The notes under the pieces: generated by a model
What the model was told of the DNA's origin: nothing
Databases searched by the model: none
The model's input: the letters and a program-made list of their open reading frames with translations, nothing else
In this document: in pieces, positions 2,887 to 35,711 of the stretch
Position numbering within the stretch: the stretch's first letter is position 1
How the letters are laid out: every line of letters begins with the position of its first letter
Sequence record: MT782071.1
Reading direction: 5' to 3' (one strand)
Origin: Escherichia phage JN02
Length of the DNA stretch: 64,000 bases
Made by a program: the position numbers and the translations under genes

Positions 2887-5212
<2,326 letters not shown>

Positions 5213-5239
5213 AAATAAAGCAAATTAAGAGGAATTAAA

Positions 5240-7222
5240 ATGGCACTTCTCTCTCCGGGCGTTGAGCTCAAAGAAACTACCGTACAGAGTACTGTAGTTA
5301 ATAACTCCACTGGTACTGCTGCCCTGGCTGGAAAATTCCAATGGGGACCGGCATTCCAGATTAAACAAATCACTGATGAAGTTTCATTAGTTGATATGTT
5401 TGGTACTCCTAATACGGATACAGCAGATTATTTCATGTCTGCTATGAACTTCCTTCAGTATGGTAATGACCTTCGTGTTGTACGCGCAGTTGATCGTGAT
5501 ACTGCTAAGAACTCATCTCCTGTAGCAGGCAATATTGAATTCACAATCTCTGCTGCTGGTAGTAACTATGCAGTCGGTGATAAAATTATCGTTAAGTATT
5601 TGACCGAAACTGTTGAAGCAGATGGTTATGTCACTTCAGTTGATGTCGATGGTAAAATTCTTAACATTTATATCCCAACCGGTAAAATTATTGCTCGTGC
5701 AAAAGAAATTAATGAATATCCGGCATTGGGTTCTAACTGGACCGCCGAAGTTGCCAGTTCTTCTTCTGGTCTCTCTGGCGTTATTACAATTGGTTCTATC
5801 GTAACCGATTCGGGTATTCTGTTAACTGAAGTTGAAACTTCTGAAGAAGCTATTACTTCTCTAACTTTCCAAGAATCTATTAAAAAATACGGTGTCCCGG
5901 GCGTAGTTGCTCTTTATCCTGGTGAACTTGGCGACCAGATCGAAATTGAAATCGTATCTAAAGCAGACTATGACAAAGGTGCTTCAGCCCAGTTAAAAAT
6001 TTATCCTGATGGTGGTACTCGTGCATCTACGGCTAAAGCAATCTTTGGGTATGGTCCACAAACTGATGACCAATATGCAATTATCGTTCGTCGTAACGAT
6101 GCAGTAGTTCAGAGCGTAGTTCTTTCTACTAAACGTGGTGAACGCGATATCTATGGTAGTAATATCTTTATTGATGATTTCTTTGCTAAAGGCGCAAGCA
6201 ATTATATTTTCGCTACAGCACAAGGTTGGCCAAAAGGTTTCTCTGGCGTAATCAAACTGGGTGGTGGCTTATCATCTAATGAAACAGTTGACGCTGGTGA
6301 TTTAATGGAAGCTTGGGATTTGTTTGCCGACCGCGAATCTGTTAATGCGCAGTTGTTTATTGCCGGTTCTTGTGCAGGTGAATCTTTAGAAGTTGCTTCT
6401 ACAGTTCAGAAACATGTTGTAGCAATTGGTGATTCTCGCCAAGATTGTTTGGTTCTTTGCTCACCGCCACGTGCAACTATAGTCGGTATTCCTGTTAATC
6501 GTGCAGTTGATAATCTGGTTGATTGGCGTACTGCGTCAGGAACTTACACTGATAATAACTTTAATGTAAGTTCTACTTATGCTGCTATTGACGGTAACTA
6601 TAAATATCAATATGACAAATATAATGACGTGAATCGTTGGGTTCCATTAGCTGCTGATATTGCTGGTCTTTGTGCTCGCACAGACAATATTTCTCAGCCT
6701 TGGATGTCTCCTGCCGGTTATAACCGTGGACAAATTCTTAACGTTATTAAGCTTGCAATTGAAACTCGCCAAGCGCAGCGTGATCGTTTGTATCAGGAAG
6801 CTATTAACCCTGTTACTGGTACCGGTGGTGATGGGTATGTTCTGTACGGTGATAAAACTGCCACGTCTGTTCCTTCACCATTTGACCGTATTAACGTTCG
6901 TCGTTTGTTCAATATGGTTAAAACGAACATTGGATCAGCATCTAAATATCGCCTGTTTGAATTGAACAACGCATTTACCCGTTCTTCTTTCCGTACAGAG
7001 ACTTCTCAATATCTACAGGGTATTAAAGCTCTCGGTGGTGTATATAACTTTAAAGTTGTTTGTGATACTACCAATAACACCCCAGCAGTTATCGACCGTA
7101 ATGAATTTGTAGCTACTTTCTACTTACAACCTGCCCGCTCGATAAATTATATTACGTTGAACTTTGTAGCAACAGCAACTGGTGCCGATTTCGACGAACT
7201 AATTGGTGCTGTAGGTGGCTAA
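5240..7222 (+). CDS. 18: tail sheath protein
   Basis: 660 aa (T4 gp18 659 aa); synteny; preceded by a late promoter. Confidence 0.95.
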   Translation: MALLSPGVELKETTVQSTVVNNSTGTAALAGKFQWGPAFQIKQITDEVSLVDMFGTPNTDTADYFMSAMNFLQYGNDLRVVRAVDRDTAKNSSPVAGNIEFTISAAGSNYAVGDKIIVKYLTETVEADGYVTSVDVDGKILNIYIPTGKIIARAKEINEYPALGSNWTAEVASSSSGLSGVITIGSIVTDSGILLTEVETSEEAITSLTFQESIKKYGVPGVVALYPGELGDQIEIEIVSKADYDKGASAQLKIYPDGGTRASTAKAIFGYGPQTDDQYAIIVRRNDAVVQSVVLSTKRGERDIYGSNIFIDDFFAKGASNYIFATAQGWPKGFSGVIKLGGGLSSNETVDAGDLMEAWDLFADRESVNAQLFIAGSCAGESLEVASTVQKHVVAIGDSRQDCLVLCSPPRATIVGIPVNRAVDNLVDWRTASGTYTDNNFNVSSTYAAIDGNYKYQYDKYNDVNRWVPLAADIAGLCARTDNISQPWMSPAGYNRGQILNVIKLAIETRQAQRDRLYQEAINPVTGTGGDGYVLYGDKTATSVPSPFDRINVRRLFNMVKTNIGSASKYRLFELNNAFTRSSFRTETSQYLQGIKALGGVYNFKVVCDTTNNTPAVIDRNEFVATFYLQPARSINYITLNFVATATGADFDELIGAVGG

Positions 7223-7233
7223 TAAGACGCCTG

Positions 7234-7262
7234 ATGGGCTATTTCGGTAGCCCATATAAATA
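7234..7262 (+). promoter_or_regulatory. stem-loop (UGGGCUA/UAGCCCA) abutting late promoter TATAAATA for gene 19
   Basis: 7-bp inverted repeat followed immediately by TATAAATA at about 7255-7262. Confidence 0.5.
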
Positions 7263-7335
7263 TAACCATATCGTTTAAAAATTAATTCTATGGGCATCTG
7301 GTTAATCCTAAGCCCATATTACTACAGAGGCTAAT

Positions 7336-29207: not shown

Positions 29208-29238
29208 ATAGTATCACACATCCATGTGTTTGTAAACT
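29208..29238 (-). promoter_or_regulatory. T4 early-type promoter (GTTTACA, 17 nt, TGaTACTAT)
   Basis: Minus-strand aGTTTACAaacacatggatgtgTGATACTATcat, overlapping the alt stop codon. Confidence 0.6.
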
Positions 29239-31324
29239 ATCCTTGGACAAATTTAAACGGAACTGATTCTAAATCCATTAAAGATGCTAACAATTTCAAT
29301 CCTTTAGGAGCACTAGTTTTTTCTACAAATGAGGAGAACGATACCGGCTCATCTGATTCGATTTCACCCGTCATAGCAACCACCTCGCCTGTTTCCATGA
29401 GAACATCACCATCGTAAATGACAGCTTCGTCCAACTGGTCCGAGGACATGACTTCAGCTTGAATAAATTTAAGGTTGGATTCTAAACCTGCACCAGTGTC
29501 AGATGACGCATCTGTAATTTTATTTATCTGCAAGAGAATGCCTCTAGGCAAAATAATTTCTTGCTCATTAGGGTGATTACTCAACTGGCCGGGATAAATC
29601 ACGTTAACTTTATGGGCGCCATCAATAGCCCATCCAACGTTAACACGGATTTGTTCTGGTGCATGCATAGCTGTTCTTACTTGGCTAGGAGAAATAGTAA
29701 CACCTTCGTCATTATTATCAATGTTAAGCTCTTTGCGAACTTCTTCAGGAGCAAGTCCAAGGGCAACGTTCTCTTTAAACCCACCGAAAATAATAGGAGC
29801 TAGTGAAGTGGAAACATAGTTTCTGAAGTAGAATACCTTATTTTTAACCATTGCTTCGTAAATAGGCATTCTGATAGACTGAGCTCTATATAACGTTAGT
29901 CCTTCAGGTAAACGATCTCCATTTAAAAACGCTGAATCAAGACCATCAATAGCGCGTTTAACTTCATCTTCATCTGCAACATCGTAAAAATCTGGTTTAT
30001 AACGACCTAACAACATATTATTAATATCGATATATGCAGAAGAGGCATATTCACGAATAGCTCGTTTTTCAGCAACAGAGTATTGTTTAGGGTCCCGATT
30101 CATTGTTATATTAAAGGTGCCTCTAGCCGATTCTCGTGCATAAGTATACATCACATTAGACAAGAACGCTGATTTACGTTGTTTCCAAGTTCTTTCAGAT
30201 ACTTCAGCTAAAACGTCGTCGGGCAGTTGGAAATTATCACGTCTAAAATCTTCAAACCATTCGTCTTTAATAGAGTCTGCAATTTCATTTGCAGCTTCAA
30301 CAAAAGCAGCTAATGCTTTAACAGATGTTGTTTTTTCTGTTTTAATTTTCTTAGCAAACTTTTCTAAAGTTGGCTTAATAACACCACCATAAGAAACTTC
30401 ATCAGCAAATCTAAAGGATTCATCAATACGATTATAAATCTTATTTTCGATATCAGCAACTAAAGTGCCTTTTGCTGTGGACGATGCTTGGGCTAGTACG
30501 ATTTCATATGCTTCAGGAAGTAATTCGGCCGTAGCTGGGCCACTAACTTCTTTAGCAGAATTTTCGTATTTCTGGAATAACTCACCTTCTTGGCGGTCAG
30601 CTTCTAAAGATTGACTTGCTGCAATAGCACGACGAGAAATTTTAGTACGAGCAATAACAGGCTTATCTTTACGTTTTTCTTCTACAGCAGCAATAGAACC
30701 AGCAATAGCCGTTTCTTTGGTGACCTTTTCGCCAGTCTTTTTACTCACATAAACTTCGCCAACATCAGAATCTACTTTCGTGTACAACTCTGTGTTAATG
30801 TTAGGGATGCCTTTAATATCTTCAATGTTGGCATTTTTACGGACCATCATCACATAGGTGTGTTTACCTGTGAATTGATACATTGCCGACAATACTTTAA
30901 AACGACCACCGGTTTTAGTAGAAACTAAACGAGCAAGAAGAGTTTGAAGTTGCTGTCCGCGTCCTTTCAATTTCTTGGTAGGGAATCGGAACAGAACTGC
31001 ATCCATACGAAGAGCTTTAACCTGCTCATATACTGTATTGAAAATGGTGTTGATTGCATCAATAGGAGCAGGACCAAGGCCATTTTTCAATTCAGCGAGA
31101 TTACCCTTTTCAGACAGACTCATAATAACAACATGAGCGTATTTGTCGCCAAGTTTAACTTGTTTTACAGCATCGCCTTCAGAAAGGTAAGAGAATAAGC
31201 GAACTACGATGTTTGTATCAACATCACCAATTTTCCAGACTTGTGGAACTTTAGCTTTAGGGTTCAAATTGACGACAGGAAGACTGCCTTCAGATTCAAA
31301 CACTTCATTTAATTGTTCGGACAT
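29237..31324 (-). CDS. alt: Alt-like ADP-ribosyltransferase (capsid-packaged)
   Basis: 695 aa (T4 Alt about 682 aa); C-terminal half carries R (LYRAQS), STS (YVSTSL) and Q/ExE (EQEIILPRG) motifs of an R-S-E ADP-ribosyltransferase. Confidence 0.8.
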   Translation of the reverse strand: MSEQLNEVFESEGSLPVVNLNPKAKVPQVWKIGDVDTNIVVRLFSYLSEGDAVKQVKLGDKYAHVVIMSLSEKGNLAELKNGLGPAPIDAINTIFNTVYEQVKALRMDAVLFRFPTKKLKGRGQQLQTLLARLVSTKTGGRFKVLSAMYQFTGKHTYVMMVRKNANIEDIKGIPNINTELYTKVDSDVGEVYVSKKTGEKVTKETAIAGSIAAVEEKRKDKPVIARTKISRRAIAASQSLEADRQEGELFQKYENSAKEVSGPATAELLPEAYEIVLAQASSTAKGTLVADIENKIYNRIDESFRFADEVSYGGVIKPTLEKFAKKIKTEKTTSVKALAAFVEAANEIADSIKDEWFEDFRRDNFQLPDDVLAEVSERTWKQRKSAFLSNVMYTYARESARGTFNITMNRDPKQYSVAEKRAIREYASSAYIDINNMLLGRYKPDFYDVADEDEVKRAIDGLDSAFLNGDRLPEGLTLYRAQSIRMPIYEAMVKNKVFYFRNYVSTSLAPIIFGGFKENVALGLAPEEVRKELNIDNNDEGVTISPSQVRTAMHAPEQIRVNVGWAIDGAHKVNVIYPGQLSNHPNEQEIILPRGILLQINKITDASSDTGAGLESNLKFIQAEVMSSDQLDEAVIYDGDVLMETGEVVAMTGEIESDEPVSFSSFVEKTSAPKGLKLLASLMDLESVPFKFVQG

Positions 31325-31379: not shown

Positions 31380-31568
31380 TTAATCTACAATCGGGAGCAA
31401 AGTACGATAAACTTCAAAATTAGGGCCTTTTTCGTACTTATCAAAATTGTCCATAAAAATATGATAGGAATCGTTATTAGGAAAATCTAATACAATTTGG
31501 GAACAAGAGGTGGAAACATTGCGTCCATCTTTATTAGCGACAACTACTGTTTCTAAATAAGCTTTCAT
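31380..31568 (-). CDS. hypothetical protein (about 62 aa from internal ATG)
   Basis: The track ORF starts inside gene 30; an internal ATG begins just after the ligase stop. Confidence 0.35.
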   Translation of the reverse strand: MKAYLETVVVANKDGRNVSTSCSQIVLDFPNNDSYHIFMDNFDKYEKGPNFEVYRTLLPIVD

Positions 31569-31569
31569 A

Positions 31570-33063
31570 TTATAGACCAGTTTGAGACCAATCACCAAAT
31601 ACATCTTCAAATGAATCGGCCTCTGTTTTATCGAAACGCCAACCTTTAATAGTTGGAAGGAAAATACCTACAGTGCCTTCACGTCCTTTAGAATGAACCC
31701 AACCATTGCATTCACAATCAGCAATACGTCCAATCAATTTACCTTCACGAGCTTCAGACATTAATCGTTCGCGGTCCAAATCATGACGCTCATCTAAAGG
31801 AATAAGAACCTTTACACCATCAACTGTTTTATGAGTTGTATCTTTAAACCCTGAACCACAATCAGTTGTAATACGACGACAACGTGATACGAGTTCGACA
31901 CCACCTAATTTGTTAGGGTCTTTAGAGTGTTCATAGTATCCTACAACTTCTAAAGCGATATCAATAACTTCTTTAAATTTAATTAGGTTCTTAGAGCGTT
32001 TGTTTTCCCAATATGAATCACGGTTTTTAAGGATAATACCTTCAAGACCTTGGTCAACGTATTTTTTATAAACCACTTTAGCTTCGTCAAGATTACGAAC
32101 TAACTGATTTTCAATTGGCTCAATTCGCTTAAAGCCTTCAGCCATATTTTCAAGAGCAGCAAAACGAACATCGTATTTCTGACCTTTAATTTTGCCTTCA
32201 GAATAAACTTCATCCAATGGAACATAGTCCCAGGCTTGAAGAACCATACCTTCCGCTTCTTTAGGAGAAATAGTCCCTTGAAGAGATTTATTTGCTAAAC
32301 CATTTGAAGTGCTACGGTCTGCAACTTGTACTTCTTCGGATTCTTCATTATCACCAAATAAGAACGACAGATCATTTCCTGAGCTCACAGCCTTTTTAAT
32401 ATCGAATGAATGATAAACTAATTCACCGTCGATTAAAACCCCATTAGGGTGTCTTTCACGAGCTTCTTTAGTCATTTCCATTAGTTCATCAGCTAATAGA
32501 GTAAGACCATGGTATTCGTTACCTGCGCGAGAAAAGAATTGAACACCATCATCGCGAACTTCGGCGAAACAACGAGCACCATCTGCTTTTAATTGGGCAA
32601 ATGCAGGCCATTTAATATTTTTAGTAATCAATTTCTCATCATATGCAGATGCTAACATCTGTGGTTGCAATTGAATAAGTCCAGGCCACACCTTATTCGC
32701 GATAGACACTGAAGCACCTACTTCAAGGTCGCGCATCATTACACGACGAAGGACTTCTACATCATCAGGTTTACCGTCCGCAATATAACCCATGAGCTCT
32801 TTAATTGCAGCATTACCAGTGAGTTTACGAGTAGCTAATGTGAACTCAATAAAATCCAACATGTCATCTAATTCAAGAAGTCCATACGCTTGAGACCTTT
32901 CACCCGGTCCTGGCCATTTCTTAATATAATACTGGATACCACGTGCATATGTTAAACGATACACACGTTCAAGTAATTTGTTGTCCTTATTTTTCTTAAG
33001 GATTTCTTGTTTTGTTTTAGTAGAACCGATCGCAGCTATTTGGTTTAAAATATCTAAAATCAT
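31570..33063 (-). CDS. 30: ATP-dependent DNA ligase
   Basis: 497 aa; N-terminus MILDILNQIAAIGSTKTKQEILKKNKDNKLLERVYRLTYARGIQYYIKKWPGPG matches T4 ligase; KADGAR adenylation motif. Confidence 0.97.
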   Translation of the reverse strand: MILDILNQIAAIGSTKTKQEILKKNKDNKLLERVYRLTYARGIQYYIKKWPGPGERSQAYGLLELDDMLDFIEFTLATRKLTGNAAIKELMGYIADGKPDDVEVLRRVMMRDLEVGASVSIANKVWPGLIQLQPQMLASAYDEKLITKNIKWPAFAQLKADGARCFAEVRDDGVQFFSRAGNEYHGLTLLADELMEMTKEARERHPNGVLIDGELVYHSFDIKKAVSSGNDLSFLFGDNEESEEVQVADRSTSNGLANKSLQGTISPKEAEGMVLQAWDYVPLDEVYSEGKIKGQKYDVRFAALENMAEGFKRIEPIENQLVRNLDEAKVVYKKYVDQGLEGIILKNRDSYWENKRSKNLIKFKEVIDIALEVVGYYEHSKDPNKLGGVELVSRCRRITTDCGSGFKDTTHKTVDGVKVLIPLDERHDLDRERLMSEAREGKLIGRIADCECNGWVHSKGREGTVGIFLPTIKGWRFDKTEADSFEDVFGDWSQTGL

Positions 33064-33338: not shown

Positions 33339-34154
33339 TTAACAATTTATAGACCAAGTCCATTTGGACGAATCTAAAGGAAAGTTTTGAATCGTCCACC
33401 ATGGCTGCATATCGGTTGGTCCTTGGGTTCGCCAGGTATACGGATTCGACGGAGCACCAATTTGATTAGGCCATGCGCCTGGACTTGTTGTACCAGATTC
33501 TTTAAGCAAATCTGCCAATCGTTTTAAAAGGTCTTCACGATCTGAATCTGAATTATGCTCTGGTGGAACCAAACGAGATTCAATATCATCCCACGTGTGT
33601 ACACGTTGTGCAGTACGAGGAATGGCATCACGTTCACCACGAGCCAACCAATAAATCGGTACATTAAGAATTTCTGCTGCATGGTCACAGTGATGAGCTA
33701 AATCGTCAACGTAACAAATCACGTTATATTTTGTTTTAGCTAGTTCGAATAATTGTTCCTTTGAAGAATCATGTCCACACATCATTACTTCAGAAAAGGC
33801 GCCTGGGAACAAAGCATTCAAATTAAATTGTCTATTCAATCGAGCATCAATTGAATCACCTAGCGCCGTCACGGCTACAAAATTATAGTTTTCTTTTAGT
33901 TTATTGATAACTCGAAGAGCATCCGAATAAGGCGCTAAGTAACGAATAAAATCAGAGCGATTATATTTTTCTATTAATTGTTTACCGAGATTATCGTCGG
34001 TATTGAATAGTTTACCAGGAGAAATAAATTTTTCGTCCTGAATCATTTTTAAAATATGTTCTAATGGAAGATTATATTTTTGGGCAAAATAAGGAAGTCC
34101 AGATTGCCAGCTTAAACATACACCATCAATGTCAGTCAAAATAGTAGGCTTCAT
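33339..34154 (-). CDS. HAD-superfamily hydrolase-like protein (30.2 position) with Trp-rich C-terminal extension
   Basis: N-terminal ILTDIDGV (HAD motif I, DxDG) and YVDDLAHH (motif IV DD). Confidence 0.55.
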   Translation of the reverse strand: MKPTILTDIDGVCLSWQSGLPYFAQKYNLPLEHILKMIQDEKFISPGKLFNTDDNLGKQLIEKYNRSDFIRYLAPYSDALRVINKLKENYNFVAVTALGDSIDARLNRQFNLNALFPGAFSEVMMCGHDSSKEQLFELAKTKYNVICYVDDLAHHCDHAAEILNVPIYWLARGERDAIPRTAQRVHTWDDIESRLVPPEHNSDSDREDLLKRLADLLKESGTTSPGAWPNQIGAPSNPYTWRTQGPTDMQPWWTIQNFPLDSSKWTWSINC

Positions 34155-34618
34155 AAAGAGTCTCTTAATAGGTTTAACACATCAATAAATTCAGCTTCAG
34201 TTAATATTGTATCATCTTTTGTTAGGTGGCTGGCCATGCTGTGCTTCAAAATTTTTCCTTTCGAAGCCTGTAATGCATCACGAAAGCCTTTGTTTTGGAT
34301 CGCGGCTTCAAAATATGCATTTGTATATAATTCTTTCCATGCTTCAGAGTATCTTGAAAATGGAATTCCAAGCCAGAAAAGCGTCCCACGGTCCTGAGCT
34401 CTTGCATAAGACCTTCCAGCTTGCTGGGCGGCCAATCCGGACATCCCAAATATACGTTTTTGTTGTTCAACATTTTTCACCTTACACCCTTGGAGAAATC
34501 CTTCAAGTCCTCCGAATTGAATACCATCCATAACAAAAGGCCATTGGGCGAAATTACTTAATGCGCATGACGGCCATTTGAAATTGCTTCTTATTTCTAA
34601 TTCACACATCTTTAACAC
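34151..34618 (-). CDS. NADAR / YbiA-family (DUF1768) N-glycosidase-like protein (30.3 position)
   Basis: LSNFAQWPFVMDGIQFGGLEGFLQGCKV aligns with the E. coli YbiA core FSNFAAWPIKVDGKTWPTSEHYFQAQKF; 4-nt overlap with the HAD-like gene. Confidence 0.6.
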   Translation of the reverse strand: MLKMCELEIRSNFKWPSCALSNFAQWPFVMDGIQFGGLEGFLQGCKVKNVEQQKRIFGMSGLAAQQAGRSYARAQDRGTLFWLGIPFSRYSEAWKELYTNAYFEAAIQNKGFRDALQASKGKILKHSMASHLTKDDTILTEAEFIDVLNLLRDSL

Positions 34619-34820
34619 TTATAATTTCAACATCAGCCCAATGACCGTATCCAGGTATACGGTCTTCGATAGATAAATTTCCGTCATTTTTAGGCATTTT
34701 AATTGACGTAACGTATGGTTCTAAACGGTTTTCTGCATAATATGGAAAAACGTCTGTTACACGATAAGTAACTTCGATCATTTCCGTACCAAACAATTTC
34801 TGGATTAATTTATTCAACAT
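34602..34820 (-). CDS. hypothetical protein (72 aa)
   Basis: ORF in the co-directional 30.x cluster; overlaps its neighbours. Confidence 0.45.
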   Translation of the reverse strand: MLNKLIQKLFGTEMIEVTYRVTDVFPYYAENRLEPYVTSIKMPKNDGNLSIEDRIPGYGHWADVEIISVKDV

Positions 34821-35007: not shown

Positions 35008-35061
35008 ATTTTTCCACTTACTAAAGAAATCATTATACTCTAATCCGTCCTTGGATGTAAA

Positions 35062-35676
35062 CTACTTAACGAAATTAATTTCTACCGGATGAACAACAGG
35101 TTGAGCAGTGATATATTGAGTAATTGCTTTCATGACTAGAGCTTCAGAACCAGGATTTTTCTCAACGAATTCACGTGCTTGGTTATGGGCTTCGAGTTCA
35201 CTTAGTAAACCACTTCGTTGGCATCCACGGTCTTGAGTACCTTGTTCAGATAAAAAGACGACGATGTATTTTTCATCGTCATACGGTTTAGACGGTTGAG
35301 CAAATGTTCCTTTACTTCCAAAAGGAGAGTTATGACGCCACATCACGCCGTGAGGAGTTTCAACCTTCGTATATTCATGCGGGCCATTTTTCTTAGTTTC
35401 TTGATGTGGAACTTCGTAGACCTTAGGGTTAGGACATTCAATAAAATGCTCATCTAAATCGGTCGAGAATATTAAAGTAAAACAATGTCTGAATTTACCA
35501 ACACCTGCCTGATAAATTTTACCTTCAGAAGTTCTAATTTCACAAACTGAGCCGGCATCAGTAACTTCTAAAACTTCAAAAGGCTCAATAAGGTCATATG
35601 AGAACATGTTTTTAAGGCGTGGAGTAATATCCCCATTTTTAAAATTCATTTTATAAAAAGTATTAACTTTAAACAT
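35062..35676 (-). CDS. hypothetical protein (about 204 aa from ATG; track start is TTG)
   Basis: GAGGA RBS before the internal ATG (MFKVNTFYKMNF...). Confidence 0.5.
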   Translation of the reverse strand: MFKVNTFYKMNFKNGDITPRLKNMFSYDLIEPFEVLEVTDAGSVCEIRTSEGKIYQAGVGKFRHCFTLIFSTDLDEHFIECPNPKVYEVPHQETKKNGPHEYTKVETPHGVMWRHNSPFGSKGTFAQPSKPYDDEKYIVVFLSEQGTQDRGCQRSGLLSELEAHNQAREFVEKNPGSEALVMKAITQYITAQPVVHPVEINFVK

Positions 35677-35711
35677 AATTTCCTCAGTGGGAGCCGAAGC
35701 TCCCAATTAAT

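Follow-up and report, generated by a model that had tools for sequence, protein, structure and literature searches.

Two overlapping open reading frames (ORFs) in the early region of a T4-like phage raise the question of whether they encode one counter-defense module or are consecutive genes with separate jobs. The window that we analyzed is a 64,000-nucleotide stretch of DNA from Escherichia phage JN02 (MT782071.1). An earlier note, made from the letters of this DNA, had described the two ORFs as a HAD-like hydrolase and a YbiA-family NADAR protein that are translationally coupled near alt, and had proposed that the pair could act against DarT-like DNA toxins or in nucleotide damage control. 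The window is a segment of a Tequatrovirus (T4-like) genome; the 2.1 kb around both ORFs match 740 phage records in a nucleotide search, and the best matches are Tequatrovirus genomes, such as that of Shigella phage SSE1, at approximately 97% identity. On the minus strand, we found the order alt, alt.1-like, 30 (DNA ligase), 30.1, 30.2, 30.3, 30.4 and 30.5, which is the order of the annotated T4 map. The features of the region are:

29237-31324, minus strand: alt, approximately 2 kb from the 30.2/30.3 ORF pair, with alt.1, the ligase gene and 30.1 between.
31570..33063, minus strand: gene 30, ATP-dependent DNA ligase, an ORF assigned by positional alignment with T4 gene 30; the downstream neighbor of 30.2.
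33339..34154, minus strand: gene 30.2, HAD-superfamily phosphatase of 271 aa (PHROG 420, 69% identity to T4 gp30.2, HAD motifs).
34151..34154, minus strand: ATGA junction of the adfN stop and the 30.2 start, read from the sequence (plus strand, 'tcat').
34151..34609, minus strand: adfN (gene 30.3), phage-type NADAR of 152 aa (PF08010, 94% identity to T4 gp30.3).
34602-34820, minus strand: gene 30.4, the 3' end of which contains 34610..34618.
34610..34618, minus strand: GTG-TTA-AAG, three extra codons of the mechanical ORF call, within the 3' end of gene 30.4.
35032..35061, minus strand: sigma-70-like promoter match, TTTACA-18-TATAAT (11/12), in the intergenic gap upstream of 30.5.

The two ORFs lie at 33339-34618, as the earlier note had it: one of 271 aa (33339-34154) and one of 155 aa when read from a GTG (34151-34618). 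Chance ORFs are ruled out by homolog searches, in which the two have homologs at E 1e-88 and 4e-178. The 4-nt overlap that had been reported is present as ATGA on the minus strand at 34151-34154, and the nearness to alt was confirmed too. The order of the genes had been reversed, however: with both encoded on the minus strand, it is the NADAR gene that comes first and the HAD gene that follows downstream. The length given for the NADAR protein, 155 aa, also had to be changed. Translation almost certainly begins at the ATG at 34609 and not at the GTG, giving 152 aa, because T4 gp30.3 and all full-length homologs start there and because the published residue numbering (E36, K43) fits that start only. 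The codons at 34610..34618 are probably not translated. From alt, adfN is approximately 2.8 kb away, in the same early region.

The junction between adfN and 30.2 is one of several overlaps in this run of genes, since 30 and 30.1 overlap by 4 nt, 30.3 and 30.4 by 8 nt, and 30.4 and 30.5 by 11 nt. The sigma-70-like sequence at 35032..35061 is the best such match within 7 kb; it is a consensus match only, and the region as a whole has no more sigma-70-like matches than shuffled sequence. As a candidate early promoter, it would serve the run 30.5-30.4-adfN-30.2-30.1-30, and its position would fit a single early transcript.

We found that the short ORF carries the core motif that had been described for it, with S18-N-F-A-Q-W-P24, D28-G29 and E36-G-F38 all present. 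In a Pfam search at E ≤ 0.1, the only match was PF08010 (Phage_30_3; score 230.9 bits, cut-off 36; E 4.8e-69; covering all 138 positions of the profile), and the general NADAR family was not found. The protein is identical to T4 gp30.3 at 143/152 residues (94%) in a gapless alignment that covers 152/152 aa; there are nine substitutions, none at a catalytic residue and none among the last 27 residues. E36, K43 and H123 are all present, and the active-site Glu (E36) and H123 are invariant in the homolog alignment. In the AF2 model (pLDDT 83, pTM 0.81), the protein has the NADAR fold, the last strand (120-123) contains H123, and a C-terminal helix spans residues 138-151. When we compared the model with the PDB using Foldseek, the only matches with probability > 0.9 were NADAR proteins: 2B3W (YbiA), 8BAU (PnNADAR, a Phytophthora NADAR-ADP-ribose complex) and 8BAT (the Geobacter lovleyi DarT1-associated NADAR). 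The phage NADAR family profile aligned with E. coli YbiA at E 2.9e-6 in hhalign, with 29% identity over 90 aligned columns. By comparison, single-sequence searches against PDB chains were weak, with E 1.5 (to YbiA) for the NADAR protein and E 0.38 (to cdN) for gp30.2, and homology detection for both proteins needed profiles and models. NCBIfam returned nothing usable for either protein, and PADLOC returned no match.

These results bear on how the protein should be named. The earlier note had called it a NADAR of the YbiA family, and the first half of that name stands while the second does not: PF08010 is its sole Pfam match, and the residue in its last strand is His123 and not Glu. In published work, this residue is His in phage NADARs, Glu in YbiA and Asp in DarG1 (PMC11543638, PMC11125620). 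E. coli YbiA (2B3W) is the best structural match of the window protein (TM 0.63/0.58); it differs in having the Glu in its last strand, its gene shares a LexA-controlled operon with dinG and ybiB, and it gives no protection against DarT1 in vivo (PMC11125620). The correct label is 'phage NADAR (gp30.3) family'.

The activity of phage NADARs on guanine-ADPr was established for the T4 ortholog in 2023-2025. NADARs were defined as guanine-ADP-ribose glycohydrolases by Schuller et al. 2023 (PMC11543638), the T4 protein hydrolyzes guanine-ADPr DNA in vitro (Toxins 2024, PMC11125620), and the summary table of a 2026 paper lists phage NADAR for guanine-ADPr and not for cytidine-ADPr. Johannesman, Carlson & LeRoux mapped the ability of T-even phages to resist DarTG1 to gene 30.3, which they renamed adfN; its product is AdfN, the 'anti-DarT factor NADAR' (PMC11257639). 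In that work, deletion of adfN in T4 and T2 cost four logs of plaquing on DarTG1 hosts, plasmid-borne adfN rescued RB69 on DarTG1, and adfN was found to be both necessary and sufficient in T4/T2 to overcome DarTG1 (PMC11257639). The alanine mutants E36A and K43A of T4 AdfN are inactive, and so is the natural RB69 copy, which is without the last 15 C-terminal residues; AdfN is an orphan antitoxin that does not bind the toxin, and DarG1 proteins are the closest non-phage relatives of phage NADARs (PMC11257639). In uninfected E. coli, T4 AdfN gives no protection against DarT1, and it is apparently adapted to hmC DNA (PMC11257639, PMC11125620). The function of the T4 ortholog is also supported by PMC12945103. 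In a T4 transposon screen (HIDEN-SEQ preprint), insertions in 30.3 were lost specifically on DarTG1 hosts and 30.3 was non-essential on K-12; the text of its DarTG1 results names 30.3 only and does not mention 30.2. RB69 in the published rescue experiment still had its own 30.2, so the rescue does not directly exclude a helper role for 30.2.

The window protein closely resembles T4 AdfN in length (152 aa), in sequence, in the position of its gene between 30.4 and 30.2, in E36/K43/H123 and in its intact C-terminal helix, and it differs from T4 AdfN in its nine non-catalytic substitutions. With DarG1 (from the DarTG1 systems of E. coli C7 and Geobacter lovleyi; 8BAT), it shares the fold and the chemistry, guanine-ADPr hydrolysis; in contrast to DarG1, the phage protein is a bare core domain with His and not Asp in the last strand, and its gene has no neighboring cognate toxin gene. 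We found no DarT1 ADP-ribosyltransferase gene adjacent to adfN, where the neighbors are 30.4 and 30.2. Because it is 94% identical to the T4 ortholog and all of its catalytic residues are intact, the window NADAR is predicted to be a functional AdfN, that is, an orphan DarG1-like antitoxin. The note's proposal that this protein reverses guanine ADP-ribosylation by DarT-type toxins is correct, given this identity to a proven DNA guanine-ADPr glycohydrolase and the NADAR-only fold matches, but it is already published: that a phage NADAR undoes this modification is known from the T4 ortholog. What the window adds is a further natural AdfN variant; since its active site is intact, the phage would be expected to resist DarTG1.

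The 271-aa product of gene 30.2 belongs to PHROG 420 (function unknown; E 5.6e-78). Its identity to T4 gp30.2 is 69%; the two proteins are near-identical over residues 1-195, and the tail is unalignable. HAD motifs I and IV, which had been noted before, are present at D8/D10 and D150/D151, and T96 (motif II) and K132 (motif III) complete all four. Over 76 sequences, down to 22% identity, D8, D10, R108, K132 and D151 are invariant; in the closer homolog set, D150 is invariant too and T96 is conserved in more than 90%. The family comprises 97 clusters in a word-indexed search and 443 representatives at E ≤ 0.001 in an exhaustive search. The HAD_2 Pfam score of the window protein itself is 16.5 bits against a cut-off of 23.8. 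The HAD assignment of this ORF is supported by the model, the Foldseek matches, the family profile and the NT5C matches of its relatives.

In the AF2 model of gp30.2, pLDDT is 84 overall and > 90 across most of residues 1-190, and the model is confident for residues 1-220, while residues 230-271 have pLDDT < 50 and are disordered. The model has a Rossmann-like core with a helical C1 cap insert (residues 16-86) after motif I. The protein comprises a capped core (1-~195), a helix (~203-220) and a disordered tail (~225-271). The Trp-rich C-terminal extension that the note had reported is this tail, with 6 Trp and 7 Pro within the last 47 residues, and it is hypervariable among homologs. A frameshift as the origin of this tail from one of the T4 type was rejected, because neither of the other two reading frames contains a T4-like motif. 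We also considered longer family members as informative fusions, and the ten such proteins from both homolog searches (258-660 aa) have no Pfam domain except for HAD in one.

To place gp30.2 among HAD enzymes, we compared its model and its family profile with known structures. The top Foldseek matches are mouse cdN (2JAO) and the S. epidermidis protein 3BWV (E ~2e-8), with mdN also among the top structural neighbors, followed by other capped HAD enzymes; of 130 PDB matches at E ≤ 0.001, the best 50 are all HAD-fold. The family profile spans 3BWV end to end (E 4.4e-6). Pfam NT5C (PF06941) is matched by 23/76 members of the gp30.2 family (best E 1.5e-9) and not by the window protein itself. Beyond its own family, several of the viral fold neighbors are labeled 5' nucleotidase, among many unnamed ones. 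Like NT5C-type 5'(3')-deoxyribonucleotidases (PF06941; human/mouse cdN and mdN, and 3BWV), gp30.2 has a capped HAD fold, the four motifs and an aromatic residue six positions past the second Asp; this is W16, which lines up with Phe in the DGVLADF motif of cdN. Unlike them, it has an extra helix and the 47-residue disordered, hypervariable Trp/Pro-rich tail, and it is below every Pfam threshold; at 15-17% identity to the nucleotidase structures and TM ~0.6, its substrate class is a guess. We therefore class gp30.2 as NT5C-like, a capped HAD phosphatase by fold and motifs whose most likely substrate would be a nucleotide monophosphate. Our literature search found no paper that mentions gp30.2 and no published function for it.

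To determine whether adfN and 30.2 travel together, we gathered 78 related viral loci, to which protein look-ups added six. Genes in them were recognized with HMMs of 30.2 and 30.3 and with the ligase, 30.1 and alt proteins of the window, and the counts are for the 76 loci whose flanks were long enough. DNA ligase is downstream of 30.2 in 71/76 loci. In contrast, 30.3 is found ≤ 5 kb upstream of 30.2 in 37/76 loci. It is directly adjacent to 30.2 in 22/76, distant Acinetobacter phages included, and in the 15 further loci 30.2 and 30.3 are within 5 kb of each other and separated by other genes. In the remaining 39/76 loci, there is no 30.3 ≤ 5 kb upstream of 30.2, and 30.3 may lie elsewhere in those genomes. 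In Shewanella phage Thanatos-1, and also in several T4-like phages of the Klebsiella and Enterobacter type, 30.2 and the ligase gene are present without a nearby 30.3. A 25%-identical gp30.2 homolog is encoded on a non-T4-like 43-kb contig with an ATP-dependent ligase gene 600 nt downstream, and other distant homologs lie amid replication genes (clamp loader, UvsX, dCMP deaminase). Because T4-like phages largely inherit their gene order, the linkage of 30.2 to the ligase gene is weak evidence for a functional tie and is suggestive only.

The earlier note had treated the two genes as a functional pair. We found no support for the module idea, since 30.3 is nearby in only 37/76 loci and adjacent in 22/76, against 71/76 for DNA ligase. 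On the synteny counts and the overlaps that are widespread in the operon, we also rejected the 4-nt overlap as a mark of a functional pair. Taken together, the synteny counts, the sufficiency of adfN in trans, where it alone rescues RB69, and the mention of 30.3 but not of 30.2 in the DarTG1 text of the transposon screen argue that 30.2 and adfN act independently.

The mechanism that we propose is as follows. The two ORFs would follow one another in a single, compact early transcription unit of a T4-type phage. When host DarT1 puts ADP-ribose on N2 of guanine in phage DNA, AdfN, as a minimal NADAR domain, would hydrolyze the bond between ribose and guanine, so that ADP-ribose is released and replicable DNA is restored. 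In this it would behave as an 'orphan antitoxin' that does not bind the toxin. The step has been shown for the T4 ortholog, and we infer it in the window phage. Most likely, gp30.2 would dephosphorylate a small nucleotide, for example a (deoxy)nucleoside monophosphate, by an aspartyl-phosphate mechanism in which D8 is the predicted nucleophile, D10 the predicted acid/base, and D150/D151 would bind Mg2+. The constant genomic partners of 30.2 are the DNA ligase gene and genes of replication and nucleotide metabolism and not adfN, and the ATGA overlap would reflect dense packing and possibly translational coupling, with no sign of a shared pathway. We consider it likely that this explanation is right as a whole, with the role of AdfN, a nucleotidase-type phosphatase activity of gp30.2 and the independence of the two all included: consecutive genes with separate jobs.

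Two other readings of gp30.2 give it a different substrate. If the two genes formed one ADP-ribose clean-up module, AdfN would free ADP-ribose and gp30.2 would dephosphorylate ADP-ribose or a product of it (AMP, ribose-5-phosphate or ADPr-phosphate), removing a reactive or signaling metabolite. Adjacency, the ATGA overlap and a common operon speak for this reading, as does the directly adjacent arrangement that reaches to Acinetobacter phages, and a small-molecule-type capped HAD near nucleotidases would suit the chemistry. Yet more than half of the loci (39/76) are without 30.3 ≤ 5 kb of 30.2 and 15 more have intervening genes, overlapping junctions are the rule in the operon, adfN alone in trans restores RB69 plaquing, and 30.3 is the only gene that the text on the T4 transposon screen links to DarTG1; we regard such a module as quite unlikely. 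Alternatively, gp30.2 could be a DNA-end phosphatase that strips 3'-phosphates at nicks for the DNA ligase encoded downstream. The position of the ligase gene in 71/76 loci and on the non-T4-like contig with the 25%-identical homolog fits this idea, and one family member weakly matches Pfam HAD_PNKP. In the HAD superfamily, however, C1-type caps suit small substrates and polynucleotide phosphatases are capless, whereas the gp30.2 model has a helical C1 cap (16-86) between motifs I and II; its top structural and profile matches are mononucleotidases, T4-type phages already encode a 3'-phosphatase, PseT, and the inherited gene order of T4-like phages weighs against reading much into the linkage. 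A role at DNA ends is therefore unlikely. Our preferred reading of gp30.2 is still the nucleotidase-type phosphatase.

The NADAR protein, too, could be assigned another task. It might repair off-target nucleic-acid ADP-ribosylation by the phage's own Alt, ModA and ModB instead of damage from a host toxin, which would be in keeping with the location of adfN ~2.8 kb from alt in the early region and with a survey in which T4-like NADAR genes are expressed early along with ARTs (PMC9503650). Against this, deletion of adfN has a phenotype only with DarTG1 and 30.3 is non-essential on K-12, the activities of the T4 enzyme reported in the literature that we found are all on ADP-ribosylated guanine, and T4 Alt is annotated as an RNA polymerase (protein) ADP-ribosyltransferase, all of which makes repair of self-inflicted damage highly improbable. 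The damage-control function in the YbiA/riboflavin sense that the note had offered as its second option found no support. It would make the protein a metabolite-repair N-glycosidase acting on intermediates of the riboflavin pathway, as the fold and the SNF...E..Q..K motif common to the window NADAR and E. coli YbiA might suggest, but the window protein belongs to the gp30.3 subfamily, in which His replaces the YbiA-defining Glu, and the genetics and biochemistry of the ortholog point to DNA guanine-ADPr. We found no report in the literature of a riboflavin-pathway glycosidase activity for phage NADARs, and this function is barely credible for the window protein. Removal of ADP-ribose from guanine in DNA remains the reading that we prefer for AdfN.

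Gene 30.2 encodes an uncharacterized member of a known enzyme class: a well-conserved capped HAD whose gene neighbors that of DNA ligase across the T4-like phages and whose disordered tail evolves fast. Finding its substrate would close a gap in the T4 gene map, and nothing points to an unusual mechanism. It is doubtful, but conceivable, that gp30.2, instead of being a housekeeping nucleotidase, is a conserved partner of the phage ligase and replisome that is recruited through the hypervariable tail and dephosphorylates a specific nucleotide-derived molecule, such as a host immune signal, a breakdown product of ADP-ribose or a ligase by-product. If so, it would be a new kind of phage counter-defense or pool-control enzyme.

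We compared gp30.2, the HAD-superfamily phosphatase encoded next to the NADAR gene adfN, and the surrounding 30.x block with their T4 counterparts, and the following features of the window are relevant here:

33339-33570, minus strand: C-terminal tail of gp30.2 (residues ~196-271), unalignable with the T4 tail
35062-35706, minus strand: 214-aa ORF (phrog_17531) at the T4 gene 30.6 position
35032-35061, minus strand: TTTACA-18-TATAAT, close to the sigma-70 promoter consensus, within the 54 nt that separate gene 30.5 from the 214-aa ORF
34246-34473, minus strand: 75-aa ORF within adfN in a different frame, putative counterpart of T4 annotated gene 30.3'
31380-31610, minus strand: alt.1-like small ORF between alt and the ligase gene, called as 76 aa from TTG

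The core of gp30.2 is almost identical to that of T4 gp30.2; in contrast, the C-terminal tails cannot be aligned, which marks the junction as a mosaic boundary. About half of the gp30.2 family members have no tail at all, and an [IL]E[YW]xYNxP-like motif seen close to the C-terminus of many homologues is absent from the window variant. We rejected a frameshift origin of the tail, of which the other reading frames give no sign. The 214-aa ORF, for which we found no Pfam match, takes the position of the 95-aa gene 30.6 of T4; this looks like a gene replacement within the hypervariable 30.x block. Judged by its sequence, the adjacent sigma-70 match is a likely early promoter of the operon containing adfN and 30.2.

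The ORF nested in adfN, a putative gene, matches T4 gene 30.3', which is annotated as translated internally in another frame. The 76-codon open stretch is retained in 13 of 14 close relatives; across distant 30.3 genes it ranges from 22 to 91 codons. The alt.1-like ORF overlaps the ligase stop region and, because the call is longer than T4 alt.1 (76 versus 62 aa), its true start is probably downstream of the called TTG.

Outside the T4-like phages, we found a 30.2 homologue together with a ligase at one locus:

L081 (IMG/VR contig 3300022074_000105, 43 kb, non-T4-like phage), 4977-7288: 30.2 homologue and ligase

The homologue is 25% identical, and 600 nt downstream of it the contig encodes an ATP-dependent DNA ligase of 372 aa (Pfam DNA_ligase_A_M and OB_2), making this a second HAD-ligase neighbourhood that appears to be independent.
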